From UHGV virus genome UHGV-0142781: a DNA stretch of 14,469 nt, one strand, 5' to 3'. Position numbers and translations under genes: made by a program. Below are positions 1 to 14,469 of this stretch, one piece after another. Position 1 is the first letter of the stretch. Every line of letters begins with the position of its first letter. Below the pieces are notes generated by a model. That model did not search any database. It was not told the DNA's origin and saw nothing but the letters and a program-made list of their open reading frames with translations. The stretch comes from a virus.

Positions 1-236
1 GACAGCAACCGGCATGTTCCATTATCAGCAGGCTGTGACCGTTCGACATACCCGGTAAACCAGCGCAGGACCAGACCATCATAACCAACATCGATCCGCA
101 CCATTTTGCCGGTGTAATCTGTCTCTGTCCCCGCCGTAATAAACCCCCGACCGCACGCGTTCAGCTCCAGCACGATATTGCAGTCAATCAGATGGACCGG
201 ATCAGAGGAAAGGTACAGGCGTTTAATTGGTTTCAT
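1..236 (-). CDS. Phage tail protein, N-terminal part (gene runs off window start); weak resemblance to P2 gpD (late control D / hub) N-terminus
   Basis: Reverse-strand ATG at 234-236; my translation begins MKPIKRLYLSSDPVHLIDCNIVLELNACGRGF... and stays open to position 1. The GRGF...G.DG.V...F.GYVE pattern loosely matches my recollection of gpD-family N-termini. Product identity is low-confidence. Confidence 0.45.
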   Translation of the reverse strand, partial: MKPIKRLYLSSDPVHLIDCNIVLELNACGRGFITAGTETDYTGKMVRIDVGYDGLVLRWFTGYVERSQPADNGTCRLL

Positions 237-243
237 CGTTTAA

Positions 244-786
244 TTACCCCAGCGCATCGTTGACCGGCTTTAAGACTTTTTCTTCAAACCAGCTCATTTT
301 GTCGGCTGGTTCATCAGCACCGGCAGCCGGACCCGCGCCCTTTGCCCCTGTTTGCTTGGTGCTGGCCGTCGCGTTGCCTTTTCGGGCCTGTCGTTTTTCC
401 GGGACACTGCCTTTTTCACGCAGGGTGAAACTTACCTGCCAGGCAAGGCGATCCTCCTGCGGTACGGCATCAATCTGACCGGTGAACGTGGCTTCACGAA
501 GGTTGATAGCCGTTGCCGTCGCATTGGCAACACGGTACTTTTTTAACGCGCCGCTGGCTTCGGTTGCGGATGCCAGCTGGAAAAGCCGCTGTAAGACGGC
601 TTCGTCGTCGAATGTCACCAGACCCGACACGCGCAGCTCTTTGGCCTTGATGCCCTGTTCAGCATTGGCCGTGCTCGATGTCTGGCCCGACTGGTCCTTC
701 TCCTGAAACTGCATGGAAGGTGAAACCAGCATGTTTTGCATGGCAATCCCTTCACCATCAAGCGCGAGTAGTGCGGTCTGGCTCAT
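244..786 (-). CDS. Hypothetical phage structural protein (position consistent with gpU-like tail protein)
   Basis: 180-aa ORF with AGGGAAG-type RBS upstream of its ATG; sits between the Ala-rich ORF and the gpD-like ORF on the same strand; host-like GC. Function assigned by position only. Confidence 0.5.
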   Translation of the reverse strand: MSQTALLALDGEGIAMQNMLVSPSMQFQEKDQSGQTSSTANAEQGIKAKELRVSGLVTFDDEAVLQRLFQLASATEASGALKKYRVANATATAINLREATFTGQIDAVPQEDRLAWQVSFTLREKGSVPEKRQARKGNATASTKQTGAKGAGPAAGADEPADKMSWFEEKVLKPVNDALG

Positions 787-1288
787 GTAGCATCTTCCCT
801 AAGTCAGATAACGAATCCCCGATAAACATCATCGCGGCGGTATGCACTGCCGTTGTTTGCGGGATGCCTTTCAGCAATTCAGCGGCAGCAACGGCATAAC
901 TTCCGCTGTAACTGAATGAAAAAATATTCGCACTGGCGGCTTTCAGGTCGTCCAGTCCCTGGCTGAGCGAGGACAGCAAACCGGCCCGTTCCTGAATAAA
1001 TCCCGTAACCTGATTTTTTAGATCTGTTGTGGTGGTACTGACTGCGGCGGCCAGCTGCGCGGCGGCAACACGCTGGGCATTCAGCGCCAGCCGGTTGGTT
1101 GAGACTGATAACGGCGCACTGGCTGGCAATACATCTGCTTTAACCGGCAACTGCATTTTTACTGTGCTGAGTTCTGCGGCCGCTGCCGCCATGCGGCTTA
1201 CCTGCGTAAATACCGGGGCCGGAAATACGGTGGACAGTTTATTCAGTCCCTGCATAAAAGCGTCATGGGTATTTTCCGCCACCATCAT
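758..1288 (-). CDS. Ala/Gly-rich phage protein, possibly a 5'-truncated tape-measure (gpT)-like remnant
   Basis: ORF track gives 758..1552, but that start would overlap the divergent Q start codon. The first plausible internal start is the MM pair at 1283-1288. The frame stays open upstream to 1552, as expected if the gene's 5' end was lost. Composition (poly-Ala, Q/L/S-rich) is tape-measure-like. Confidence 0.35.
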   Translation of the reverse strand: MMVAENTHDAFMQGLNKLSTVFPAPVFTQVSRMAAAAAELSTVKMQLPVKADVLPASAPLSVSTNRLALNAQRVAAAQLAAAVSTTTTDLKNQVTGFIQERAGLLSSLSQGLDDLKAASANIFSFSYSGSYAVAAAELLKGIPQTTAVHTAAMMFIGDSLSDLGKMLHEPDRTTRA

Positions 1289-1545
1289 GACGATAACGTC
1301 ACCACTTCCACCACCACTACCGGATAACAGCTTTTTAGCCAGATATCCCACCGCGTTGGCAGGGCTGAGATAACCGCCTGAATACCGGTTTTTAACGCGC
1401 TCAGGTCTTCCGCTTCCATGTTTTCCACGCTTTTGACGTATACCGTTACCGCCAGGGTGTGGCTGGTTATCTCGCACGCCGTAATTAACGAACCTATCGA
1501 TCACGAATATGACCGCCCATCGGGCTGGTACTTTGGGAAAGCAGC

Positions 1546-2607
1546 ATGACAAAGAAACAGCGTAAAAATAAAAAATTCGGGTCCATGACCGGCAACAAGG
1601 TTGAAACCTTCACGCCAGGGCGCGGAAGCGTGATCACCTTTGGCGAACCAGAACCCATCCTGACGACCGGCACTGATTATCACAATATCTGGTATGACAA
1701 TGAGTATGACCACTGGCGACTCCCGATTGATCGCCTGGCGCTGGCCCAGTTGCCGAACCTTAACGGCCAGCACGGCGGGGTACTGTATGCGCGGCGCAAT
1801 ATGGTGGCCGGTGGCTATATCGGCGGCGGCCTGACGCCTGACCAGGTCGAACAGGCTGTCTTTGATTACCTGCTGTTTGGTGACGTCGCTATCCTGAAAA
1901 TTCGTAACGTATTCGGGGAAGTGATCGACCTGCTGCCGCTGCCGTCGCTGTATCTGCGCTGCCGGAAAGACGGGTCGTTTGCCGTTCTGCAGGAAGGGCC
2001 AGCGCTTATCTATGACCCGGAAGACATCGTTTTCTTTAAAATGTACGACCCTCGCCAGCAGGTGTATGGCCTGCCTGACTATATCGGCGGCATCCATTCG
2101 GTGTTACTCAACAGTGAGGCAACCATCTTCAGGCGCCGTTACTACAATAACGGGGCGCACATGGGCTTTATTCTCTATACCAGCGATCCGAATCTGACGC
2201 TGGAAATGGAAAACGAAATCAAAGAGAAGATCGCCCAGTCCAAAGGGCTGGGTAACTTCCGCAATATGTTTATCAACATCCCGAAGGGCGACCCGGAAGG
2301 GGTTAAAATCCTGCCGGTGGGCGAAGTCAGCGCAAAGGACGAATTTGCCAACATCAAAGGGATCACCGCACAGGATATCTTTACCGCTCACCGTTTCCCC
2401 GCTGGCCTGGCGGGTATCATCCCGACCAATGGCGCGGTAATGGGCAACCCTGAAACCGCCCGCACAACCTATCGCAAGGATGAAGTTATCCCCTTGCAGC
2501 GCAAGCTAATGAACGGCGTCAACAATGACCCGGAGATCCCCGCACACTTGCACCTGGTTTTTGACGTGGATATCCCAGCAATTACCACCGAAAAGGGCGA
2601 AAAATGA
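1546..2607 (+). CDS. Q: Capsid portal protein (P2 gpQ family)
   Basis: 353 aa; motifs FGEPEP, IFRRRYYNNGAHMGFILY, SKGLGNFRNMF and EVSAKDEFANIKGITAQDIFTAHR match my recollection of P2 gpQ. GGGAAAG RBS at 1533-1539. Confidence 0.85.
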   Translation: MTKKQRKNKKFGSMTGNKVETFTPGRGSVITFGEPEPILTTGTDYHNIWYDNEYDHWRLPIDRLALAQLPNLNGQHGGVLYARRNMVAGGYIGGGLTPDQVEQAVFDYLLFGDVAILKIRNVFGEVIDLLPLPSLYLRCRKDGSFAVLQEGPALIYDPEDIVFFKMYDPRQQVYGLPDYIGGIHSVLLNSEATIFRRRYYNNGAHMGFILYTSDPNLTLEMENEIKEKIAQSKGLGNFRNMFINIPKGDPEGVKILPVGEVSAKDEFANIKGITAQDIFTAHRFPAGLAGIIPTNGAVMGNPETARTTYRKDEVIPLQRKLMNGVNNDPEIPAHLHLVFDVDIPAITTEKGEK

Positions 2608-2930
2608 GCGCAGTTAAGTTAAAATCATCCCCATTGTTAGCAATGGTGTGCGGGATGGTGAACATGCGAGTTTTTAAAATTAAATGTCCTGAATGCGGCT
2701 CACCGGCCATCATTCGCAAATCAGACTGGAAAGATAAAAAACTGGCCGATTTATACTGCGCCTGCACGGAAGTTGAATGCGGCCACACCTTTGTTTTTAA
2801 CGCCCAGTTTTCACATACTCTCAGCCCCAGCGGACTGACCGGCAACAAGCTGGTTAAATTTCTGATTGATCGGCTCAAACCAGACGAAAGACAATTCGCT
2901 TTAGATTTGCTAAACAACCATATTAATTAA
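2604..2930 (+). CDS. Ogr/Delta-family zinc-finger transcriptional activator (late-gene activator type)
   Basis: CPEC-x22-C-TEVE-C-GHTF matches the Ogr pattern C-x2-C-x22-C-x4-C-x2-TF (P2 Ogr: CPLC...CQNVNCSATF). ATG at 2604 overlaps the Q stop TGA at 2605-2607 (ATGA). An alternative start at 2664 (MRVFKIKCPEC) gives an Ogr-sized protein. Confidence 0.7.
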   Translation: MSAVKLKSSPLLAMVCGMVNMRVFKIKCPECGSPAIIRKSDWKDKKLADLYCACTEVECGHTFVFNAQFSHTLSPSGLTGNKLVKFLIDRLKPDERQFALDLLNNHIN

Positions 2931-2982
2931 CCTATAAGCACCGAGTATCTTTATTTAAATGTGATATTTATAAGGAAATATA
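2931..2982 (+). promoter_or_regulatory. AT-rich leader of the cargo cassette (possible promoter plus RBS)
   Basis: Very AT-rich stretch (TTTATTTAAATGTGATATTTATAAGGAAATATA) ending in an AAGGA RBS before the ATG at 2983. No specific -35/-10 assigned. Confidence 0.3.
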
Positions 2983-4818
2983 ATGAGCAATTCAAAATAC
3001 ATTAATTTAGATGCGAGAATAAAAAAACTAAAAGAAGTTGTTAAAGATTTAGACACAAACACTTTAGCAACCTACTCTTTTTGGGAAATGTACAAATTTG
3101 GTACATTAGGTCAAAAAATTGAACTACAATCACCAGCACGACAAATCTTATATCTTTTTGGGATTGCATGTTCATCTGCTGAACCAACCGAACCAACTGA
3201 TAATGTTGAGGGTAAGATAAAACAAACAGTAGAGATCCTAAATGATATTTTTACAAAATATATGTTGGCGTACTTTCCAACCAAAGATGATTTAAAATCT
3301 GGATTAGAAGATGAATGGCATAAAGTTAGAGAAGTTGCTATGCCAATGTTTTCAAACTACTTTTTTGAAGGGTTAAAAGTTTCCACTGAAAACTTCAAAG
3401 GGATCATAAAAAATTATTTCAATGGTTTTGAAAATGAAATAAAAACACATTTTGGCTTAGATCACCATGAAATGGTAGAAATTTTAAATCTCATTGGTGA
3501 GCTTATACAGAGCAAATATGACAGATTCCGTGAAATAATGGATACATTAAAAGACGAACATGAGAAATTTAAAGAGAATAATTTTGAAAAACATGAAGAT
3601 TTTATAACATATATGGATGACATGAGGGAGCGTACAAAACATTTAGCACAAGAATTTCATGACTTCCTCAATGGGAGTGTATCATTCAAGTTTGATTCAA
3701 TAAGATGTAAACTTGGTGACGATGTCGTTGATAGTTTTATAAAAGCTTTCGTTACAGAGCGTGGAAACTCATCCGAAATCAAATACATTACTGATGAGAA
3801 TCCATTTTCATATAAACCGATAGTAACTGTAAATAATCTGGATTATATGCTCCCTTCTGCTAACGCAGCTTATGAAGCTATCATTCTTAATCTTGAAAAG
3901 TTTTTTAAAGAGTCAAAACACAATGATAAATTTAGAAAAGCCCGAGACAACAGGCTGGAACATGAGACTTTTTGCACCTTTAGAAATTTCTTCCCTGAAT
4001 CAACTACAATACTTGAAAGTGTATTTGAAACAAACAAATCCCATAATGAACATGATCTGATTATTTTCCATGATAAAACGATTCTTATTGTAGAGGCTAA
4101 AGCATCACCACGCCGCGCTCCATTGAGAGAACCAGCCAGAGCATACATTAGAATTAGAGATGATTTCAAACGTAAATCAGGAATACAAAGCGCATCTGAA
4201 CAAGCAAATAACTTAAGAAATTTAATCATTAATAATGAAAAAACATCATTATATGATAAAAAAGGTAATTTACTATATACCATAAATCGTTGTGACTACG
4301 ACAATATATATTGTATATGTGTCACTAAAGATGATTTCGGAATGCTTGCTACAAATTTAACTTTAATGTTAGAAAAAAAAGAAGATGAACCCTACCCTTG
4401 GGTTATTTGTATTCAAGACTTGAAGTTTTATTTTGATTGCCTTAAGGAAATAGATTTGGATCATGACTATTTCTTAAATTATATTCGTGAAAGAATAAAA
4501 ATACACGGCAAAGCAACGGCATGTGATGAGCTTGAATATGCAGGTGCATACTTGAATTATGGTGGTTTCGATTTCATTAATAAAGAAGTAAACTCTAACG
4601 TTTGTCTTGATATCTCTGAATCACGAGTATTCGATGAAATCCATATCGAAAAAGTTAATGGCAGGAAATATGTTCACCAGATTAAAAAACCTACTTACAG
4701 CATTTTAAATAGAGATAAATTAATTTCTTCTTTAAATTTCAATCACTCAAACAAAGATGCAAAAAAAGCAAAATCAAAAAGAAAGGAACAGAAAAAATCC
4801 AGAAAAAGAAACCGTTAA
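2983..4818 (+). CDS. Cargo protein with central PD-(D/E)xK-like nuclease motif and poly-basic C-terminal tail; candidate defence effector
   Basis: 611 aa, strongly AT-rich. Residues 356-373 read EHDLIIFHDKTILIVEAK (D-x12-ExK, nt ~4048-4101). C-terminal 23 residues are almost all K/R/S. No Walker A motif. Confidence 0.85.
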   Translation: MSNSKYINLDARIKKLKEVVKDLDTNTLATYSFWEMYKFGTLGQKIELQSPARQILYLFGIACSSAEPTEPTDNVEGKIKQTVEILNDIFTKYMLAYFPTKDDLKSGLEDEWHKVREVAMPMFSNYFFEGLKVSTENFKGIIKNYFNGFENEIKTHFGLDHHEMVEILNLIGELIQSKYDRFREIMDTLKDEHEKFKENNFEKHEDFITYMDDMRERTKHLAQEFHDFLNGSVSFKFDSIRCKLGDDVVDSFIKAFVTERGNSSEIKYITDENPFSYKPIVTVNNLDYMLPSANAAYEAIILNLEKFFKESKHNDKFRKARDNRLEHETFCTFRNFFPESTTILESVFETNKSHNEHDLIIFHDKTILIVEAKASPRRAPLREPARAYIRIRDDFKRKSGIQSASEQANNLRNLIINNEKTSLYDKKGNLLYTINRCDYDNIYCICVTKDDFGMLATNLTLMLEKKEDEPYPWVICIQDLKFYFDCLKEIDLDHDYFLNYIRERIKIHGKATACDELEYAGAYLNYGGFDFINKEVNSNVCLDISESRVFDEIHIEKVNGRKYVHQIKKPTYSILNRDKLISSLNFNHSNKDAKKAKSKRKEQKKSRKRNR

Positions 4819-4872
4819 CAAAATATCCTTTTGACGAATTCAAACCAACTGAACATATGGAGAAAATAAAAC

Positions 4873-6228
4873 ATGAGAATGACCGCCCCATTAAAATCAT
4901 TTTCTGATGGATTTTGTGAGAATGACGACATTTTTGAAAGAAAAAAACTTCACGACATTATTATGCGAGTTGCTACTAACGCGCCTGATAAAAGTTTAGT
5001 TTTAGCATTAGATGATAAATGGGGTAATGGGAAAACTTCATTTGTAAAAATGATGGAATCAGAAATAAGCAAAAAACATTCCGATGATTTCGAAGTCATC
5101 TATTTTGATGCATTTAAAAGTGATTATCAGTCGGATCCATTTGTAGCGTTAACTTCCAATATTTATTCGTTGGTTAGTAATGAAGAAGGCAAGCTAAAAA
5201 CATTAGGTGAAAAATTATTAAGTGCTGGTAAAAAACTAGGAGCTTCATTCCTTTTAAATGGTGCGAAGTTTGCAATCAGTACTATTTCAGGTGGGATGGT
5301 TTCTGGTACTGTAGTCGAAAAGGCAAGTGATACAATATCAGAATCCATATCATCACCTGTAGAAAAATACATAGAAGAAAAGATAAAAGCAAGTGAGAGT
5401 GAGTTTGCTACTATTGAGCAATTTGGAAATTTGTTAACTGAGATATACAAAGAAAGTGGAAAGAAAATATTTTTTATAATTGATGAATTAGACCGTGCAC
5501 GACCTGATTTTTCATTGGATTTATTAGAAAAGATAAAACATATATTCTCAGTAGAGGGTATTATTTTTCTATTGGTCGTCAATCGCGAACAATTTGAAAA
5601 AAGCATTGAGTCTCGATATGGCAATATAAACTCAAGATTGTATCTCAATAAATTTGTTCATTACTGGTTTTCGCTTCCCAAAACAAGCTGTTTATCTGAT
5701 GGTTGCTTAAATGGATATACTTATTCAACTATAAAACGATATTTACTTTCCATTGATAATGGAAACGACTTATTAAGTAGAAATGGTCCGCTTCTTAATA
5801 CACTATCATTGCTTTTGGAAATAAATGGAGCTTCTTTGAGAGAGGCGGAACGCTGTTACTCGGTATTTTCGGTTATCGAAGATGTCAATAAAGTAAACTA
5901 CTATACAAGTGATGCATATAAAGTAGCTTTGGGACTTGTTGTTTTCCTGAAAGTACATAACTCACAGTTGTTAACTGAAATTGTCTTAAAAAAAATCGTG
6001 TTAAAAGAAGCGATAGCCAAGCTTTTAATATACACAGTTCATCACCACAATATAATCGAAGCTCAATTCATTGAATATATCTTAAAGTACCATTACGCAA
6101 CAAATGAAGAATTAATAGAAGAAAGGAAGCAAAGAACATACTCTGATATAGAAGGTGGATATGGTCGAAGAACTCCCCTATTAGAAGGCATGTTTAAAAC
6201 AGTTGAGGGGTTTGATATTAGTTCTTAA
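4873..6228 (+). CDS. KAP-like P-loop NTPase; candidate defence partner
   Basis: 451 aa, AT-rich. Walker A-like DDKWGNGKTSF (res 47-57, nt 5011-5043) and Walker B FFIIDELDR (res 200-208), about 150 residues apart with a hydrophobic stretch between, as in KAP NTPases. 54-bp gap after the upstream gene, same strand. Confidence 0.85.
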   Translation: MRMTAPLKSFSDGFCENDDIFERKKLHDIIMRVATNAPDKSLVLALDDKWGNGKTSFVKMMESEISKKHSDDFEVIYFDAFKSDYQSDPFVALTSNIYSLVSNEEGKLKTLGEKLLSAGKKLGASFLLNGAKFAISTISGGMVSGTVVEKASDTISESISSPVEKYIEEKIKASESEFATIEQFGNLLTEIYKESGKKIFFIIDELDRARPDFSLDLLEKIKHIFSVEGIIFLLVVNREQFEKSIESRYGNINSRLYLNKFVHYWFSLPKTSCLSDGCLNGYTYSTIKRYLLSIDNGNDLLSRNGPLLNTLSLLLEINGASLREAERCYSVFSVIEDVNKVNYYTSDAYKVALGLVVFLKVHNSQLLTEIVLKKIVLKEAIAKLLIYTVHHHNIIEAQFIEYILKYHYATNEELIEERKQRTYSDIEGGYGRRTPLLEGMFKTVEGFDISS

Positions 6229-6319
6229 ACTCTATTTTTTCGCGGACTCTTTGCCGCCCGCCCCGCATCATCGCGCAGATCGACGCAACAAGTTGCGACG
6301 GTCAGCGCGATTGCATTCA

Positions 6320-8932
6320 TTATTTTGGGTGACTACCATCCACACCCGCCAGCATTTTTTGATACTCCCCGACCGGATCAAACCGCAGGCGCGTGGCATC
6401 AATACCGTGGTTATCACGCAGACGGTCCCATAATTTATTCACCGTCCGTGACTCATCGAGTAATTGACGCGTTATCAACTCGCCGCCAGCACTGCCCCGA
6501 TAAACTTTGCCGCCAATCTCCAGACGGCTCCCCATTAACAGCGAAACAGCCTGAATCTCTGAAATCTCAACCGAACACAACGCCGCATCAGCCAGCAGAC
6601 TGGCAACCTCAGGGGCAAGCGCTGCCCGCCTGGCTTTTTCAGCCGCCGATCTGGCCTCGGTTTTTTTAACGGCAGAACGCCAGGCAACATCTAATTCGCT
6701 CCCTGGCTCATAAGGTGATCCGCTTTGCCGCCTTTTGAATGGTGCTTCACGTAGTCGCCGCATCAATTTTCGCCGCGTTGGCTGGTCCATATTTTCAAAA
6801 TCGACGATTTCCTCTTCTGATTCTTCTGTCATACCCTCCACATCACGCGAAAAATCGGTGATTTTTTCGTCTTCCGTAGAGTTATTGACAGAACTCCAAG
6901 CGTCGCCGGTTGGCGACGGCAAAAGGTCAACCCCCAAACCGGGGCCGTTTTTGGCCTCGGTGGTAGCTTTAGATTTGGCGCAGATTTTCCACTTAACCAG
7001 ACGGGTACAAATACGGGAGGCATCACCCAGACGCGGCGACCAGACCCCGAAAACCTTTTCGGGGATCTCACAATAAGCATTCATTTCATCAGCTGGCTGA
7101 TAGGCCAGACGGACGACATAGTTTTCTCGCGGGATCAAAACCCCACCCTGGCGGATGATGTAGGTAGCAAAGCACCCGACATCGGCAGCGGCGCAAACCG
7201 CATCCATTGCAGGATCCACAAGCAACGGCGCACCGCGTTTGAAGGTATTGTCAATTTTCTGGCGGGTCGTGATTTGATTGCTCAGTTTGCGCAGCTCGCG
7301 GTAAACCGATATGGGCGGCTGTCCGATAGGCTGAAACTGGCGGATACGGTGAAGCGATGCCCAGGCCATTGCATATTTGGCGGTTTCATTCAGCGGCTTG
7401 CCGCTTTCGTCGTCCAGTTCACCGGCCAGCGCGTGGCCGTCGATATTCTTCGAAATGTATTTAGCGATATATGCCGTTGCCGACCCTTTCCGTGGGTCCA
7501 TTTTTTTTGACTTGAAACGAGCACCGGTATTGCGGCCCAGCTCATCGCGGTCTTCCGCAATGAAGTAGGCGCGAAGGATCGCAACCGTGGCTTTGACTTG
7601 CTCTTGTGGCATAAACAGCAACGCGTGCCAGTGTGGTGTCCCATCGTGATGCGGCTCGGCGACACGGAAGCCATAAGGGCGCAAATCTTCGCGTTTCAGT
7701 TTGGCGGTTGCACGGTTCCATACACGGCATAAATAGCGCTGCGCCTGGGCGACGGTGGAATGATTCCATTTGGCATTATGGTGGCCGGACGCAATATTAC
7801 TGTGATATTTCGACGGGCAAGTGATGGTCAGGAAAATACCAACATCGCCGCGACTTTGGGCGACAAGTTCAACGCCAGCCATTCTGGTCATAAGCTCATG
7901 GCGACGAATAGCCGGGTTAGACGTGGATTTATTAATCATTTCCTCAAGCGACGAAACGTTGCCGTCTTCGTCTACCAGTTCATGACTTTTGAAAAAATCC
8001 CGGTTTTTACGGCGCTGTTCCTGCCACTCGATCAGGCTGGAAGCGCTAACGTAGGCGTGCGCTTTTTTATTTACCGCGCCAACAGCACGCAGCTGGTTCT
8101 CGCGCCAGTCACAACGCAAGCGCCAGATTTTTCGCCCCCACCAGTCAGGCGAAGCCATACGCAAAATGGCCGTGCATATGCGCTCGCGTTCCCACGGCGC
8201 ATACCATGCAGGCGGCACAATACGAAGCGCCAGCATTTCTCGGCCCAGGTGGCAATAAAGCCAGTCCAGTTCTTCGACGTTCATGTCGGAAACATTCCGC
8301 CCTAGGGCTTCGCATTCCGTCCCCAGCATTTCAGCCATGCGGCTGGCGATCTCATTAGCGGCGCTTAGTGCATCCCGCTTTGTGAAATCAGCCAGACGTT
8401 GCCAGCGCCCGAACCAGTACGCGGCCAGTTCGCCGGTGATATCAGGCGAAACACCTTGCCTTGTGCGTACAACATCAAGACGCAGCAATGATTTTTTCAC
8501 GGTTCCCATAAGAAAATCATTGGTGTGTCTGGTTTCACGGTTGACCCGTAACCACTCAATTTTTTTTCGCCAGACTTCACGAATGAAGAACGGCTCTGCT
8601 AATAAACGCGCTTCGACACCTTCCGGCGTATTGGTCCAGGCTGCCGTCGTAGATTTGGCGGCTTCCATTTCCTGCCGGATTAAATTTTGATGGGCGGCCA
8701 GTGGCAGGCCGCACGGTTCGTACCTGTCCAGCGCCTGGATAAGCGCGTTACGGTCCCGCACCTCGTCGGGGTTGTAACCGGCGTGTCTGAAGATGTGATC
8801 GATGTGTTTTTTTACGGCAGGATGATGCGCCACCGCCCCGGCAAGCGGGGCGATTTTTTTCGGTTCGTAGGTGTACAGGCCAACAGCTGGGCGCGGCGCG
8901 TTCCAGGGCCATGCAAAAGCTGTGTCAGACAT
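6320..8932 (-). CDS. A: Replication initiation protein (P2 gpA family rolling-circle endonuclease)
   Basis: About 870 aa at the expected position upstream of the cargo slot; identified by size, synteny and general resemblance to gpA. ORF track starts at a GTG at 8950; the ATG at 8930-8932 (MSDTAF...) is the more likely start. Confidence 0.85.
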   Translation of the reverse strand: MSDTAFAWPWNAPRPAVGLYTYEPKKIAPLAGAVAHHPAVKKHIDHIFRHAGYNPDEVRDRNALIQALDRYEPCGLPLAAHQNLIRQEMEAAKSTTAAWTNTPEGVEARLLAEPFFIREVWRKKIEWLRVNRETRHTNDFLMGTVKKSLLRLDVVRTRQGVSPDITGELAAYWFGRWQRLADFTKRDALSAANEIASRMAEMLGTECEALGRNVSDMNVEELDWLYCHLGREMLALRIVPPAWYAPWERERICTAILRMASPDWWGRKIWRLRCDWRENQLRAVGAVNKKAHAYVSASSLIEWQEQRRKNRDFFKSHELVDEDGNVSSLEEMINKSTSNPAIRRHELMTRMAGVELVAQSRGDVGIFLTITCPSKYHSNIASGHHNAKWNHSTVAQAQRYLCRVWNRATAKLKREDLRPYGFRVAEPHHDGTPHWHALLFMPQEQVKATVAILRAYFIAEDRDELGRNTGARFKSKKMDPRKGSATAYIAKYISKNIDGHALAGELDDESGKPLNETAKYAMAWASLHRIRQFQPIGQPPISVYRELRKLSNQITTRQKIDNTFKRGAPLLVDPAMDAVCAAADVGCFATYIIRQGGVLIPRENYVVRLAYQPADEMNAYCEIPEKVFGVWSPRLGDASRICTRLVKWKICAKSKATTEAKNGPGLGVDLLPSPTGDAWSSVNNSTEDEKITDFSRDVEGMTEESEEEIVDFENMDQPTRRKLMRRLREAPFKRRQSGSPYEPGSELDVAWRSAVKKTEARSAAEKARRAALAPEVASLLADAALCSVEISEIQAVSLLMGSRLEIGGKVYRGSAGGELITRQLLDESRTVNKLWDRLRDNHGIDATRLRFDPVGEYQKMLAGVDGSHPK

Positions 8933-9146
8933 TGGATGCCCCGCTATCACCCTCCCGCTGGGAATGTTTTTCGATTAGCGGGTCGAGTAACACATTGAAA
9001 GAAATCAACAGCGTATTTGCGGCTTCACTTCCGGCGAGAACACCCGCGAACGTTGCGTGTGCAAGGGCCAGTGTTTTGGCTTCGTTAAGCGCAGCCAGTG
9101 CGCCGCGCTGGTATTCCGAAAGACCGTTATTAATTTTGTTAGCCAT
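8925..9146 (-). CDS. Small hypothetical phage early protein
   Basis: 73 aa; its ATG overlaps the dam stop (TGATG at ~9144-9148), suggesting translational coupling; position matches the small ORFs before A in P2. Confidence 0.6.
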   Translation of the reverse strand: MANKINNGLSEYQRGALAALNEAKTLALAHATFAGVLAGSEAANTLLISFNVLLDPLIEKHSQREGDSGASNV

Positions 9147-10111
9147 CAGAAGACCACCTCGTCAGCCGTCCCACCCCACACGGAATAACCAGCACAAGGG
9201 CCACAGTCAGGACAGCACCCACCACCTGCACGACGACAAGTTGCACAGACTTTGAGGACGCCGATCACTTCACTGGCGGCCCCTCTGGTAATGGCGTTCG
9301 CGCTGACAGAACGGTTAACGCTGATTTCCTGGAAGTTGAAAGCGCGATAAATCTCGCGGGTAGATGGGGTGTCGCTATTGGACAGGATCACCGGCGAACC
9401 AGTAAGGCGGTTAATATCCAGCAGGGCGGCAGCTAACTGGCGATGCTCTTTAATCCCAAACGGGGCGGTGTGGTATTGGGTGAAATTAGCGGTTTCGCTT
9501 GTTGGCAGGTATGGCGGATCGCAGTAGATAACCGCGTCACTACCAATCATAATTTTTAACGTGCTCTGGAAATCGCAGCACACGAAAATGGCTTTCGTGT
9601 CGTTAGCTTTTTCAGTGAATAAACGGATCTGTTCTTCCGGGAAGTAAGGCGGGGTTTTGTGTCGCCCAAAGGGAACGTTATATCCACCCTGTTGGTTGTA
9701 GCGTACTACGCCGTTATATCCGTGACGGTTCAGGTAAAGAAATTGTGCTGCACGAAGAATCTTGCCCGTGTCCGGTCCGTCCTCAAACACATTGCGCGAT
9801 GACAGAAGGTCATAGGCGCGGGCGTTGAAATCATCGCGGATCCACTTATAGCCGTCTTTATCGCCGTACACTTTAAACAGCGGGCGAGCAGCGTCGATCA
9901 CCGCATCAGGCCAGCGGGTTATCTGGCGATACAGGTTAATTAAATCTGGGTTGATATCACCCAGGATATAACGGCGATATTCAGTATTGAGGAAAACAGA
10001 AGCACCGCCGACAAACGGTTCCACCAGGCAATCGGCTTTCGGCAGAATCGTTAGCAAATCAGGCATAACCCGGCCTTTGCCACCGGGCCATTTAACGAGA
10101 GATCGAATCAT
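9146..10111 (-). CDS. dam: DNA adenine methyltransferase (Dam family) with Cys-rich C-terminal extension
   Basis: N-terminal KWPGGK, EPFVGG and catalytic DPPY (res 198-201) motifs; GGAGAAAG RBS. C-terminal about 35 residues carry six Cys (CATC...CC..C..C). Confidence 0.9.
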   Translation of the reverse strand: MIRSLVKWPGGKGRVMPDLLTILPKADCLVEPFVGGASVFLNTEYRRYILGDINPDLINLYRQITRWPDAVIDAARPLFKVYGDKDGYKWIRDDFNARAYDLLSSRNVFEDGPDTGKILRAAQFLYLNRHGYNGVVRYNQQGGYNVPFGRHKTPPYFPEEQIRLFTEKANDTKAIFVCCDFQSTLKIMIGSDAVIYCDPPYLPTSETANFTQYHTAPFGIKEHRQLAAALLDINRLTGSPVILSNSDTPSTREIYRAFNFQEISVNRSVSANAITRGAASEVIGVLKVCATCRRAGGGCCPDCGPCAGYSVWGGTADEVVF

Positions 10112-10181: not shown

Positions 10182-10571
10182 TTAATTGACTGCGTTATCT
10201 GGCGCGGGTGGTTTGTCGCGTATCGCCTGAATTTCGGCGCGTGGTGCTGCATAGTCCTTAAATTCCCACGGCATTGATGCTGCAAATTCGGAAAGGCGCT
10301 TAATGCCCATCAAAAGGCACGTTTGCTCCTTTTCGGTTAGATTTCCGTAAGTACAACCCAGCTGTTTAGCGGTCAGCTTCGGCATTCCGGCTATGTATCT
10401 GGACGCATCGTTTGCCAGGATGAAAATCACCTTTTTACAGGCATCATCTAGGCGGTTAAAACGGGTTGCAGTGTCGTTCACGCGTGAGGCGTTCAAACTG
10501 GCTTGTAGCCGCGCCCGTTGCTCTAAGAACTGGCGGCGGCCTGGTTGTTGTTCTGTCTTATCCATCAACAT
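10182..10571 (-). CDS. Hypothetical phage early protein
   Basis: ORF track starts at a GTG at 10577; the ATG at 10569-10571 has a GGGGAGG RBS 5 nt upstream. About 129 aa, phage-typical GC, same strand as the early operon. Confidence 0.6.
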   Translation of the reverse strand: MLMDKTEQQPGRRQFLEQRARLQASLNASRVNDTATRFNRLDDACKKVIFILANDASRYIAGMPKLTAKQLGCTYGNLTEKEQTCLLMGIKRLSEFAASMPWEFKDYAAPRAEIQAIRDKPPAPDNAVN

Positions 10572-10586
10572 AACCACCTCCCCGAA

Positions 10587-10808: not shown

Positions 10809-10946
10809 GTTGATCTCCGTCATATTGAAAAGATGCCGGGATACGACCCCACGCCCGGCGCGTGTTTCCTGTGATAACATCGCTATGCCTGTGTAACTTT
10901 GAGCAGTGAATCAGGCATAACAATCACCAACACAGAAGGAGTTGTA

Positions 10947-11426
10947 ATGAAATTCAATGTGTTTTTTAAAAAAGACCACGGATCACACTGGGTGCTTTCC
11001 GATGATTCCCCCCTCTTTGAAAGTCCACTATTTGAAACAAGACCTAAAGCCATTGATGACCTTGAGAACTTTGTAGGCCTTATGGAATCGCCAATCTTTA
11101 TTAAGGCTGGTGACGATATTAATTCTGGCGATACAGAAAACTGTCCATCTGTAGTAATTTCTTTAAAACAGCATGAATCGCTATGGGGCTGGGAATTATT
11201 TATCTCAAAAAATGGACAACTTTCTAAAGTTACCGAAAGTTCAGGTAATGGCTTTGACTCATTAGAATTAGCAAAGCAAAGTGCCCAGTTTTTCCTTAAT
11301 GCCATTATCGACGCTCCTATTCTGGATCAAGCCGATGTCGCTATCCCCGGCATGCACTTCTCAAAATCTTTCGAGGAAACGCACCACATTGGTGACACTC
11401 ACCCATCTAGTAAATGGTTCAAATAA
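10947..11426 (+). CDS. AT-rich hypothetical protein (moron), antisense to the early operon
   Basis: ATG at 10947 with AGGAG RBS at 10936-10940 (ORF track extends to 10899). 159 aa, visibly AT-richer than neighbours; no recognisable motifs. Confidence 0.7.
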   Translation: MKFNVFFKKDHGSHWVLSDDSPLFESPLFETRPKAIDDLENFVGLMESPIFIKAGDDINSGDTENCPSVVISLKQHESLWGWELFISKNGQLSKVTESSGNGFDSLELAKQSAQFFLNAIIDAPILDQADVAIPGMHFSKSFEETHHIGDTHPSSKWFK

Positions 11427-11430
11427 TCCA

Positions 11431-11778
11431 TCACTGTGGTGTTATCGTTTTTCTTGTGCGAGGTGGTACATCTCGCACGGTTTCTTCATCAACAATTAAC
11501 TCATAAACTCTGATGCTGCTATCACCTTTTGATACGTCATCAAATACCTGAAAAAGAAAACTCATGAATTGCTCATAAGTGACGCTGGGTTCAACATACC
11601 CACCAGTAACCTCAATTAATGGTGTTAGTCCTGAATTATCTGCTAACGAAACGCAGTCCAACTTATCCAAACGGAAAAAGTAATTACCGCAAGGTGTTCT
11701 TTTATCCTTAATCCGTATAAATACATTTGATAACGCTGTATGACTATCTGAGAGTTTAAAGATTTTTGCCGTGTCCAT
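11431..11778 (-). CDS. AT-rich hypothetical protein (moron) immediately downstream of cox
   Basis: 115 aa starting 22 nt after the cox stop on the same strand; its stop lies 4 bp from the stop of the convergent 10947-11426 gene. AT-rich relative to cox. Confidence 0.6.
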   Translation of the reverse strand: MDTAKIFKLSDSHTALSNVFIRIKDKRTPCGNYFFRLDKLDCVSLADNSGLTPLIEVTGGYVEPSVTYEQFMSFLFQVFDDVSKGDSSIRVYELIVDEETVRDVPPRTRKTITPQ

Positions 11779-12637: not shown

Positions 12638-13645
12638 ATGACAATTAAGAAACTCGATGATGGTCGTTATGAAGTGGATATCAGACCTGCAGGGCGCAAC
12701 GGAAAGCGCATCCGCAGGAAATTTGACAAGAAAAGTGAGGCTGTAGCTTTTGAGAAACACACTCAATACAACCATCACGATAAAGAATGGCTGGCTAAAC
12801 CGACAGATAAGCGGCATCTGTCTGAATTAACAAAAGTCTGGTGGGATCTGAAAGGCAAGCATGAAGAACACGGAAAATCCAATTTGGGTAAGATTGAAAT
12901 CTTTACCCGGATCACTGATGACCCTTGCGCGTTCCAGATAACCAAAGCGCTTATTAGCCAGTACAGCATGACTCGCAGAGGGCAAGGCATAAAACCGGCC
13001 AGTATTAACCGCGACCTTACCTGCTTGAGTGGTATGTTTACTGCGCTAATTGATGCGGAGTTGTTTTTTGGCGAACACCCTTTCAGAGGGATGAAAAAGC
13101 TCAAGGAGCAGAAACCAGAAACAGGCTATCTGACGCAGGAAGAAATAACATTGTTGCTTGCCAATCTTGACGGGGACAACAAGAAAATCGCGATTCTCTG
13201 TTTAAGTACCGGCGCTCGATGGGGTGAGGCCGCGAAACTGAAAGCTGAGAACGTAATACAGAATCGGGTGACGTTCGTTAAAACAAAGACGAACAAACCA
13301 CGTACTGTCCCTATCTCTGAGGAAGTAGCTGTAATGATTGCGGGTAAAGGGTATCTGTTCCCAGATGCCTCATACCCGAAGTTCAGGCGAACAATGAAAG
13401 ATGTAAAACCAGATCTACCGGACGGGCAAGCAACTCACGCATTGCGTCACAGTTTTGCTACCCACTTTATGATTAACGGCGGGAGTATCATCACCTTGCA
13501 GAGAATACTGGGACATTCACGGATAGAGCAGACAATGGTCTATGCGCACTTTGCCCCGGAGTATCTTCAGGATGCTGTTTCACTCAATCCGCTACGTGGT
13601 GGTGTTGACTCCCAGAGTGTCCACACTGTGTCCACAGTAGGGTAG
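12638..13645 (+). CDS. int: Tyrosine integrase (P2 Int family)
   Basis: 335 aa; N-terminus MTIKKLDDGRYEVDIRPAGRNGKRIRRKFDKKSEAVAFEK and C-terminal HALRHSFATHFM...LGHSRIEQTMVYAHFAPEY match P2 Int as I recall it. GGGGG RBS. Confidence 0.95.
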   Translation: MTIKKLDDGRYEVDIRPAGRNGKRIRRKFDKKSEAVAFEKHTQYNHHDKEWLAKPTDKRHLSELTKVWWDLKGKHEEHGKSNLGKIEIFTRITDDPCAFQITKALISQYSMTRRGQGIKPASINRDLTCLSGMFTALIDAELFFGEHPFRGMKKLKEQKPETGYLTQEEITLLLANLDGDNKKIAILCLSTGARWGEAAKLKAENVIQNRVTFVKTKTNKPRTVPISEEVAVMIAGKGYLFPDASYPKFRRTMKDVKPDLPDGQATHALRHSFATHFMINGGSIITLQRILGHSRIEQTMVYAHFAPEYLQDAVSLNPLRGGVDSQSVHTVSTVG

Positions 13646-13726
13646 TTTATTATGGCTTTCAGTGGTCTTGCGTGCCGCGCAAACCCGCATTGCACCGCTG
13701 AAAGCCCATGTTACCTACCCTGAAAA

Positions 13727-13753
13727 ACGCCCTTACGCAGGCTTATTTTTTGC
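13727..13753. other. Candidate attL core (P2 att-core-like sequence) marking the prophage-host junction
   Basis: CGCCCTTACGCAGGCTTATTTTTTG is close to the reverse complement of the P2 core as I recall it (AAAAAATAAGCCCGTGTAAGGGAGATT); lies about 80 bp after the int stop, just before the clpA terminator. Confidence 0.45.
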
Positions 13754-13804
13754 CTGCCGTTTAAACTCCCTGAATATCCCAATTCAAATCACTTTTATCA
13801 GGCG

Positions 13805-13829
13805 AAAAAAAACCGGGCATTACGCCCGG
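13805..13829 (-). terminator. Rho-independent terminator of clpA
   Basis: Minus strand reads GCCGGGC-GTAAT-GCCCGG followed by eight U (stem 13813-13818 / 13824-13829, U-run 13805-13812), about 20 bp after the clpA stop. Confidence 0.75.
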
Positions 13830-13848
13830 CTGATTAGGTGATTAAAGA

Positions 13849-14469
13849 TTAATGTGCAGCTTCTGGCTTGTGCTTTTGCGCACTCTGGAAACCATAAGTC
13901 AGCTCATTTTTCTCTTTATCCAGCGCAACGGTCACCTGGCCACCATCCACCAGCGAACCGAACAGCAGTTCGTTAGCCAATGGTTTTTTCAGGTTATCCT
14001 GGACAACACGCGTCATTGGACGTGCGCCCATTGCGCGGTCGTAGCCTTTCTCTGCCAGCCAGTCACGTGCTTCCTGGCTCACTTCCAGAGAGACACCTTT
14101 CTGATCCAGCTGAACCTGAAGCTCGACGATAAACTTATCAACAACCTGATGAATCACCTCGGTAGAGAGATGATCAAACCAGATAATGTTGTCGAGGCGG
14201 TTACGGAATTCCGGCGTAAACACTTTTTTGATTTCGCCCATTGCATCAGTACTATTGTCCTGATGAATCAACCCAATCGATTTACGCTCAGTTTCACGCA
14301 CACCGGCGTTGGTGGTCATGACCAGCACCACATTGCGGAAATCCGCTTTACGCCCGTTATTGTCGGTCAGCGTGCCGTTATCCATCACCTGCAACAGCAG
14401 GTTAAAGACATCCGGGTGTGCTTTTTCGATTTCATCCAGCAGCAGTACCGCATGCGGATGCTTAATAAC
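13849..14469 (-). CDS. clpA: ATP-dependent Clp protease ATP-binding subunit ClpA, C-terminal part (gene runs off window end)
   Basis: Translation ...LLQVMDNGTLTDNNGRKADFRNVVLVMTTNAG...ALDKEKNELTYGFQSAQKHKPEAAH matches the ClpA C-terminus nearly residue for residue; stop at 13849-13851. Confidence 0.95.
   Translation of the reverse strand, partial: VIKHPHAVLLLDEIEKAHPDVFNLLLQVMDNGTLTDNNGRKADFRNVVLVMTTNAGVRETERKSIGLIHQDNSTDAMGEIKKVFTPEFRNRLDNIIWFDHLSTEVIHQVVDKFIVELQVQLDQKGVSLEVSQEARDWLAEKGYDRAMGARPMTRVVQDNLKKPLANELLFGSLVDGGQVTVALDKEKNELTYGFQSAQKHKPEAAH

Follow-up and report, generated by a model that had tools for sequence, protein, structure and literature searches.

P-loop NTPases of the KAP family have already been linked to phage exclusion. 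PifA of the F plasmid excludes T7 and is reported to cause depolarisation of the membrane and leakage of nucleotides (as summarised in PMC13001434). Protection against phage is also conferred by EF_KAP and by related KAP NTPases whose C-terminal regions are uncharacterised, and EF_KAP depends for it on both its Walker B motif and its C-terminal region (PLoS Biol 2026, PMC13552941). Reve, a single-gene KAP system from P4 hotspots that was picked among genes unrecognised by DefenseFinder or PADLOC, protects E. coli (NAR 2026, PMC13586616). The gpA-gpQ region of P2-like phages has been described as a reservoir of anti-phage systems (PMC9122126), and the contents of P2 hotspots are reported to be exchanged very rapidly (PMC13586616). 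Here we analysed the virus genome UHGV-0142781, a stretch of 14,469 nucleotides (the window) that carries a P2-like Citrobacter prophage, and in particular the gene at 4873-6228 on its plus strand, which encodes a KAP-type protein of 451 amino acids. The explanation that we favour, with a probability of roughly 0.6, is that this protein is a minimal soluble KAP NTPase of the PADLOC candidate type PDC-S20, serving as autonomous single-gene anti-phage cargo of the slot between the portal/Ogr genes and GpA, and that it was stacked by chance beside an independent NERD gene.

A preliminary description of this DNA had proposed the open reading frame, its Walker motifs and its KAP-family membership. 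The open reading frame is present in the window, with a GGAG ribosome-binding site 8 nucleotides 5' of its ATG, and the initial methionine is nearly invariant in an alignment of 94 homologs reaching down to 41% identity. An annotated protein of Citrobacter portucalensis (P0001) is 100% identical to the window protein; it was found in 12 contigs, and at the 4 of those places shown the open reading frame is intact and identical. Walker A (WGNGKTSF, residues 50-57, 5020-5043 on the plus strand) and Walker B (FFIIDELDR, residues 200-208, 5470-5496 on the plus strand) both lie where they had been placed, the latter within the most conserved block of the protein (196-272), and W50, G51, G53, K54, D204, E205, D207 and R208 are invariant in 94 of the 94 homologs. 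The two KAP signatures were recognised as D-K-W-G-N-G-K-T at residues 48-55 and F-I-I-D-E-L-D-R at residues 201-208. Of the form G-x-W-G-x-G-K-S/T given earlier, the W-G-x-G-K-T part therefore stood, but the first G did not, an invariant aspartate (D48) occupying its place. The suggested profile search gave a match of residues 24-272 to Pfam KAP_NTPase (PF07693) with an E value of 3.4e-39 and 135.3 bits, compared with a gathering score of 20. Because this score is far above the threshold and the Walker residues are invariant among homologs, the assignment to the KAP family of P-loop NTPases can be regarded as secure on sequence grounds.

Among the defence profiles, the best match was to the PADLOC candidate PDC-S20 (model PDLC04959, E = 8.9e-72), residues 18-415 being aligned with positions 18-404 of a profile of 464. 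Four PDC-S20 models matched the protein in all, including PDLC04956 (E = 8.6e-60), and in PHROGs it fell within phrog_8614 (E = 2e-130), a family without assigned function. The single-gene character of PDC-S20 was also found in the genomic data, since the KAP gene is the sole gene of the slot in three Salmonella prophages (L018-L020, with a KAP protein 75% identical to that of the window) and has no conserved neighbour over 63 other loci.

The cargo slot of the window contains only two genes, the KAP gene and, upstream of it, the gene for a 611-amino-acid NERD-type PD-(D/E)xK protein (2983-4818, plus strand). One explanation would be that the two constitute a single defence system, in which the ATPase senses infection and licenses the nuclease. 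The genes lie on the same strand and are separated by a junction of 54 nucleotides (4819-4872, plus strand) that contains the GGAG ribosome-binding site and in which a scan revealed no terminator-like site, so that co-transcription in the window element is plausible, although stacked co-transcription alone does not make a system. The order of the pair and the same 54-nucleotide spacing recur in a second lineage (L086/L087), a KAP remnant stands beside a relative of the 611-amino-acid protein in Klebsiella prophages, and operons that join a nuclease to an NTPase are very frequent among defence systems (bioRxiv 10.1101/2025.07.10.664194). However, the distribution of the two genes argues against this explanation. 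Besides its solitary occurrence in Salmonella, the KAP gene occupies the same slot without the 611-amino-acid gene in Klebsiella (L021-L023, 66% identity) and Proteus (L004, 40%). The 611-amino-acid family, in turn, is the only occupant of the slot in Enterobacter bugandensis (L024, L082) and Hafnia paralvei (L088, L089), is found alone in viral contigs, and stands with an unrelated gene for a 595-amino-acid protein in Pseudomonas. KAP relatives were collected at 51 other loci from viral contigs and 12 from genome contigs, the latter mostly distant, and a relative of the 611-amino-acid protein was present within the flanks of none of them (0/51 and 0/12); likewise, no KAP gene lies beside any of the 3 viral loci of the 611-amino-acid family. 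The pair was only found in the window lineage (L014-L017) and in L086/L087, and between these two lineages the partners have diverged discordantly, with 97% identity for the 611-amino-acid protein and 81% for KAP.

The breakpoints of homology told the same story. With L018, a prophage that has KAP only, homology is interrupted between 2915 and 4860, which brackets the 611-amino-acid cassette; with L024, a prophage that has the NERD gene only, the interruption runs from 4806 to 6662 and brackets the KAP cassette together with the 3' end of gpA (6320-6661), which is divergent in L024. Because each gene is bracketed separately, the window can be described as two cassettes joined by approximately 53 nucleotides. 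In Klebsiella pneumoniae (L025-L028), the order is reversed, and the KAP copy, which lies 5' of a 599-amino-acid relative of the 611-amino-acid protein, is a dead open reading frame of 110 amino acids (6561-6893). This stump retains the N-terminal 101 KAP residues, including Walker A, with 66-69% identity to a KAP homolog, and is recognisable as a defence-gene remnant from cassette replacement; according to published work, defence pseudogenes in P2 hotspots are rare. The stump is widespread among Klebsiella prophages, the 599-amino-acid relative being indexed in 45 blocks of the collection. Solo occurrence, the co-occurrence counts, the breakpoints and the discordant divergence together ruled out a conserved two-gene system, and it is very unlikely that the two genes work as one. 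The preliminary description had singled out a KAP NTPase coupled to a PD-(D/E)xK protein as a notable arrangement; this coupling was not borne out, since each gene stands alone elsewhere and none of the 63 other KAP loci has a relative of the 611-amino-acid gene. Elsewhere, KAP relatives adjoin OLD/AriA-like ATPases and AbiU/AIPR, RmrA-like, NsnA/PD-T4-2_A GmrSD_N and YaaC-like proteins. At one such locus (L041, 2798-4648, plus strand), an unrelated OLD/AriA-like AAA_15 ATPase of 616 amino acids lies 5' of a 61% identical KAP gene, in the place that the 611-amino-acid gene takes in the window, and with its near-equal length it shows how easily a conserved partner could be wrongly assumed from size and position only.

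A second question was whether the protein acts at the membrane. Its insert (residues 107-195, 5191-5457 on the plus strand) separates the two Walker motifs, the position at which the membrane segments of KAP proteins are reportedly put in the original description of the family. A hydrophobic stretch had earlier been noted here as typical of the KAP insert. The stretch exists, as LGASFLLNGAKFAISTISGGMVSGTVV at residues 122-148, but its reading as a membrane insert did not hold. The maximum of the Kyte-Doolittle 19-residue mean is 1.06-1.08, where about 1.6 is taken to indicate a transmembrane segment, and the Hessa sum is +6.9 kcal/mol, where a value of 0 or less would be favourable. In the family as a whole, the Kyte-Doolittle value of 1.6 was reached in 3 of the 94 members and a favourable Hessa energy in none of them. 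An AlphaFold2 model built from the 94 sequences, with a mean predicted local distance difference test (pLDDT) of 80.9 and a predicted template modelling score (pTM) of 0.75, gave long helices at 107-130 and 160-195 and a tip at 130-168 that is rich in Gly, Ser and Thr and has pLDDT values below 50. The insert is thus modelled as a two-helix arm with a flexible tip rather than a transmembrane hairpin, and by hydropathy and AlphaFold2, the only two approaches applied, the transmembrane helices typical of the KAP family were not found in it.

These data bear on the possibility that the protein, like PifA or Tmn, brings about abortive infection by acting on the membrane, its tip being a degenerate KAP transmembrane hairpin that, once the ATPase is triggered, inserts into or perturbs the inner membrane and causes leakage or depolarisation. 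The position of the insert would fit this possibility, as would the small-residue pattern of the tip, which is kept in the family with K121 and G123 nearly invariant, and the 3 members that reach the hydropathy threshold. In addition, the PifA model of PADLOC matches the NTPase domain (E = 1.8e-17), and the depolarisation and nucleotide leakage reported for PifA concern a KAP protein that has no transmembrane helices (as summarised in PMC13001434). Two or four such helices are typical of the KAP family without being universal; in contrast to the position between the Walker motifs, PMC13001434 places them outside the P-loop domain. However, the insertion energy is unfavourable throughout the family, the model shows a disordered loop and no hairpin, no Tmn model was matched, and the likeness to PifA is limited to positions 32-256 of a profile of 720. 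We therefore consider a membrane-acting mechanism unlikely. Because hydropathy stays under the transmembrane thresholds in the window protein and in the family, the PDC-S20-type clade appears to be soluble and, like PifA, predicted to lack a transmembrane segment.

The fold of the model was found by Foldseek to be that of an RdrA/ORC-like ATPase. Behind the ATPase core, residues 273-451 (5689-6225, plus strand) are predicted by AlphaFold2 to be entirely helical. When 1.84 billion representatives were searched with this part alone, it was found in only 14 proteins; of those that are full-length, most have approximately 450 amino acids and carry it in the same C-terminal position, marking it as a family-specific domain. 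Its conservation differs strongly from that of the core: the mean identity to the window protein is 80% over residues 196-272 and 62% over residues 1-105, compared with only 31% over residues 336-451, a hypervariable and shuffled portion. At the nucleotide level, the window and L086 are 96-99% identical over the 611-amino-acid gene and the first 190 or so KAP codons, fall to 60-67% at 5746-6195, and return to about 96% in gpA. Such a fall and recovery marks a recombination tract and not point divergence. Mosaic proteins also illustrate this exchange. In P0002, the NTPase part is 96% window-like, while the C-terminal part is 84% identical to that of P0005 and only 50% to that of the window; P0017 and P0021 share 95% identity over their NTPase parts, compared with 36% over their C-terminal parts. 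Both divergence and recombination are thus far more rapid in the C-terminal domain than in the ATPase core. The combination of a constant motor with an end domain that is shuffled and evolves quickly would be expected if the latter served specificity or sensing, and we suggest from this pattern that the C-terminal domain may be a specificity or sensor module.

The genomic setting is consistent with a defence cargo. The left flank of the slot (1546-2930, plus strand) is formed by the portal gene (1546-2607; Pfam Phage_portal, TIGR01540, E = 3.8e-68) and the Ogr/Delta late activator gene (2604-2930; Pfam Ogr_Delta), and the right flank by a P2 GpA-type replication endonuclease gene (6320-8950, minus strand; Pfam Phage_GPA, E = 4.9e-107). 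Backbone homology to SW5 and L018 ends at 2915, and homology to SW5 (L001) restarts at 6241, which delimits a cargo island at 2916-6240 with a guanine-cytosine (GC) content of 30-32% in a backbone of approximately 54%. The backbone is about 95% identical to that of the Salmonella phages SI7, SW5 and SW3 (Peduoviridae, Irrigatiovirus). The slot between Ogr and GpA is filled in SW5 and SI7 by a DNA methylase gene and a small open reading frame, and the island of the window is absent, in agreement with the earlier view of the KAP gene as cargo. The slot, lying between portal and GpA and variable among close relatives, corresponds to the described gpA-gpQ hotspot. Furthermore, at 25 of the 51 viral-contig KAP loci the KAP gene follows portal and precedes GpA, and one of these two markers is present at another 7 (32 in total).

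The KAP gene could alternatively have nothing to do with defence, being either a moron with another phage or host role (control of prophage replication or packaging, or a selfish function of the addiction type) or decaying cargo in a dead prophage. The element has indeed lost its terminase, capsid and tail genes by deletion, replication is another process in which AAA+/ORC-like folds take part, and the literature search yielded no experimental report on the clade. However, decay is difficult to reconcile with an open reading frame that is intact and identical at the 4 places shown and whose catalytic residues are all conserved, and defective P2 elements are reported to retain intact defence genes (PMC13586616). 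In addition, the KAP gene is accessory, being absent from near-identical phages, its relatives are stacked with recognised defence genes, and the genes of this slot that have been tested are mostly antiviral (PMC9122126, PMC13586616). A role outside defence is thus improbable.

If the KAP protein is an autonomous anti-phage cargo, as we favour, the prophage would express it and thereby shield its host from other phages. A phage component would be recognised by the variable C-terminal domain, perhaps together with the flexible arm tip, and recognition might make the ATPase switch or oligomerise in an NTP-dependent manner, on the analogy of the ring-forming RdrA and of switches of the STAND/ORC type. 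The switched ATPase would then halt the infection through an effector step, for which the candidates are nucleotide consumption and an action on a phage or host factor that sequesters or remodels it. The defence role and the effector step are what we infer here. On a more daring version, the 451-amino-acid protein, with neither a transmembrane segment nor a recognisable effector domain, would by itself be a complete anti-phage system, a minimal RdrA-like ring ATPase with a shuffled C-terminal sensor whose output is its own ATPase activity or assembly; we put this forward tentatively and consider it rather doubtful. It is more speculative still that the stacked KAP protein cooperates with the NERD nuclease although neither requires the other.

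Several points weigh against autonomous defence by this protein. The PDC entries of PADLOC are computational candidates only, and the name 'PDC-S20' was not found in the searchable literature. The KAP protein has no recognisable domain of the nuclease, protease, TIR, SIR2 or pore type, so that its effector step is unreadable from the sequence and the killing or arrest step is speculative. Expression from the prophage is assumed, because the promoter scans gave nothing above chance (12 promoter-like sites compared with a shuffled expectation of 15.1, and none in either intergenic region). The likeness of the model to RdrA is moderate, with a template modelling score of 0.43 normalised to the query and 14% identity. 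The sensor role of the C-terminal domain is suggested by an evolutionary pattern, and fast divergence could also mean relaxed constraint. Finally, the conserved order and spacing of the pair in L086/L087 would be compatible with co-expression and cooperation of the two genes.

The neighbouring 611-amino-acid protein was characterised through its relatives. It has no direct match in Pfam, PADLOC, NCBIfam or PHROGs and none in the phage protein collection. Its homologs at 39-44% identity, however, exceed the Pfam NERD threshold. Of the residues of the PD-(D/E)xK core, E371 and K373 are invariant and D358 is nearly so throughout the aligned family, which indicates that this core is intact and agrees with the nuclease fold assigned to it earlier. 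The AlphaFold2 model (pLDDT 89.6) has a long helical N-terminal half, a NERD-type core and a Lys/Arg-rich tail, the last being replaced by a SEC-C zinc motif in distant homologs. Foldseek revealed weak likeness to the single-protein defence nuclease Upx (E = 1.6e-4, template modelling score 0.24) and to restriction nucleases. The protein is plausible as an uncatalogued single-gene nuclease defence candidate. One relative is stacked with a HEPN protein. In Pseudomonas viridiflava, a relative (L029, 8890-10677; L030, 4628-6415) is chromosomal and lies beside a type VI secretion system VgrG/PAAR cluster; it is followed after 38 nucleotides by the unrelated 595-amino-acid gene, which has no Pfam match, and this NERD pair may be a different two-gene arrangement.

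The rest of the window comprises the backbone of the prophage and a piece of the host. Dam is encoded at 9146-10111 on the minus strand, Fil, Cox and an XRE-type repressor are further P2-like backbone genes, and the integrase gene lies at 12638-13645, the stretch after it (13646-14469) containing the 3' end of host clpA. On the opposite side of the element, L014 has a U32 peptidase gene of the host, and since no tRNA gene was found in the window, a tRNA does not serve as the attachment site. Approximately 15 kb is missing, comprising the terminase, scaffold, capsid and lysis genes and most tail genes, with the junction near 1468-1552 (window 1-1552; L014 1640-4674). The portal gene abuts genes for 248/264-amino-acid, 180-amino-acid (HP1_ORF34) and 574-amino-acid proteins, which in SI7 end the tail module beside the attachment site, while in the intact relatives SI7, SW5 and L018, terminase lies to the left of portal. 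The deletion is common to all 4 places shown for P0001, and the integrase, repressor, Cox, Dam, GpA, Ogr and portal genes and both cargo genes are intact in the remnant. In the early region, three small open reading frames on the minus strand (10883-11305, 10182-10577 and 11431-11778) have no Pfam family; two of them belong to the function-unknown families phrog_7428 and phrog_10410, and the 140-amino-acid frame at 10883-11305 had no match in any library, gene callers placing a 159-amino-acid gene on the other strand (L014, 14075-14554). Searches of the window and the cargo boundaries for Rfam families, tRNAs and repeats gave no meaningful match. The cargo nucleotides had no match among complete E. 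coli genomes and GenBank phages, in which only the Ogr/portal backbone was found. Sequence searches of solved structures with the KAP and 611-amino-acid family profiles gave no match, and further discovery papers mention neither KAP nor NERD.

If the protein is confirmed as a stand-alone defence, it would be a very small (451 amino acids), soluble and tractable immune ATPase of the KAP family. Because natural series of its alleles differ almost only in the C-terminal domain, they would lend themselves to the study of phage sensing by KAP NTPases and of the output that follows. The locus further illustrates, in a clean natural case, how a P2 hotspot is assembled, with two independent cassettes, each of which occurs alone elsewhere, and the KAP stump in Klebsiella. 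For annotation, it teaches that co-occurrence should be tested before adjacent same-strand hotspot genes are called an operonic 'system'.

Compared with the described systems, the window protein shares with PifA a KAP NTPase domain (residues 33-271 in the PADLOC match), the lack of transmembrane helices and the condition of a single protein of a mobile element, so that PifA, which the preliminary description had rightly named, is a precedent. PifA itself was nevertheless rejected as an identification, because nothing in the window protein corresponds to the C-terminal two thirds of PifA, the window protein having its own family-specific C-terminal domain. Tmn, the other precedent offered at that time, proved misplaced: those who characterised it assign it to the YobI family, distinct from KAP and with two transmembrane helices inside the P-loop domain (PMC13001434). 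No Tmn model appeared among the PADLOC matches at E <= 0.01, which presumes that the library has Tmn models. Tmn and QatA are related P-loop NTPases in phage defence, and QatA of QatABCD was likewise rejected, as its PADLOC match (E = 3e-14) covers the NTPase domain only, its NCBIfam score is 47.4 bits compared with a cut-off of 600, and no QatBCD genes lie nearby. RdrA of RADAR (PDB 8fnt, 8fnu and 8hr8) resembles the protein in fold only, with 14-16% identity and a length of approximately 800-900 amino acids compared with 451 here; it was also set aside, with no RdrA model among the PADLOC matches and no gene for the adenosine deaminase RdrB in the slot or the window. EF_KAP is similar in being a single-gene system and in having, behind its KAP NTPase, a C-terminal region to which no known fold is assigned, but it is modelled with two transmembrane helices, has a tail of 322 amino acids and comes from Firmicutes. 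Reve is also a single-gene KAP NTPase, from the sister hotspot in P4, the satellite of P2; because PADLOC recognises the window protein as PDC-S20, the two probably belong to different clades, a separation drawn from the description of Reve only. From the PADLOC single-gene candidate PDC-S20 itself, matched over nearly the full length of its profile, no difference was detectable. Thus, membership of a catalogued candidate, residence in a described hotspot and carriage by a known kind of element are all already known, while what is new here is that the neighbour is an independent cassette and that the clade appears to combine the absence of a transmembrane segment with an RdrA-like predicted fold and a shuffled C-terminal domain.

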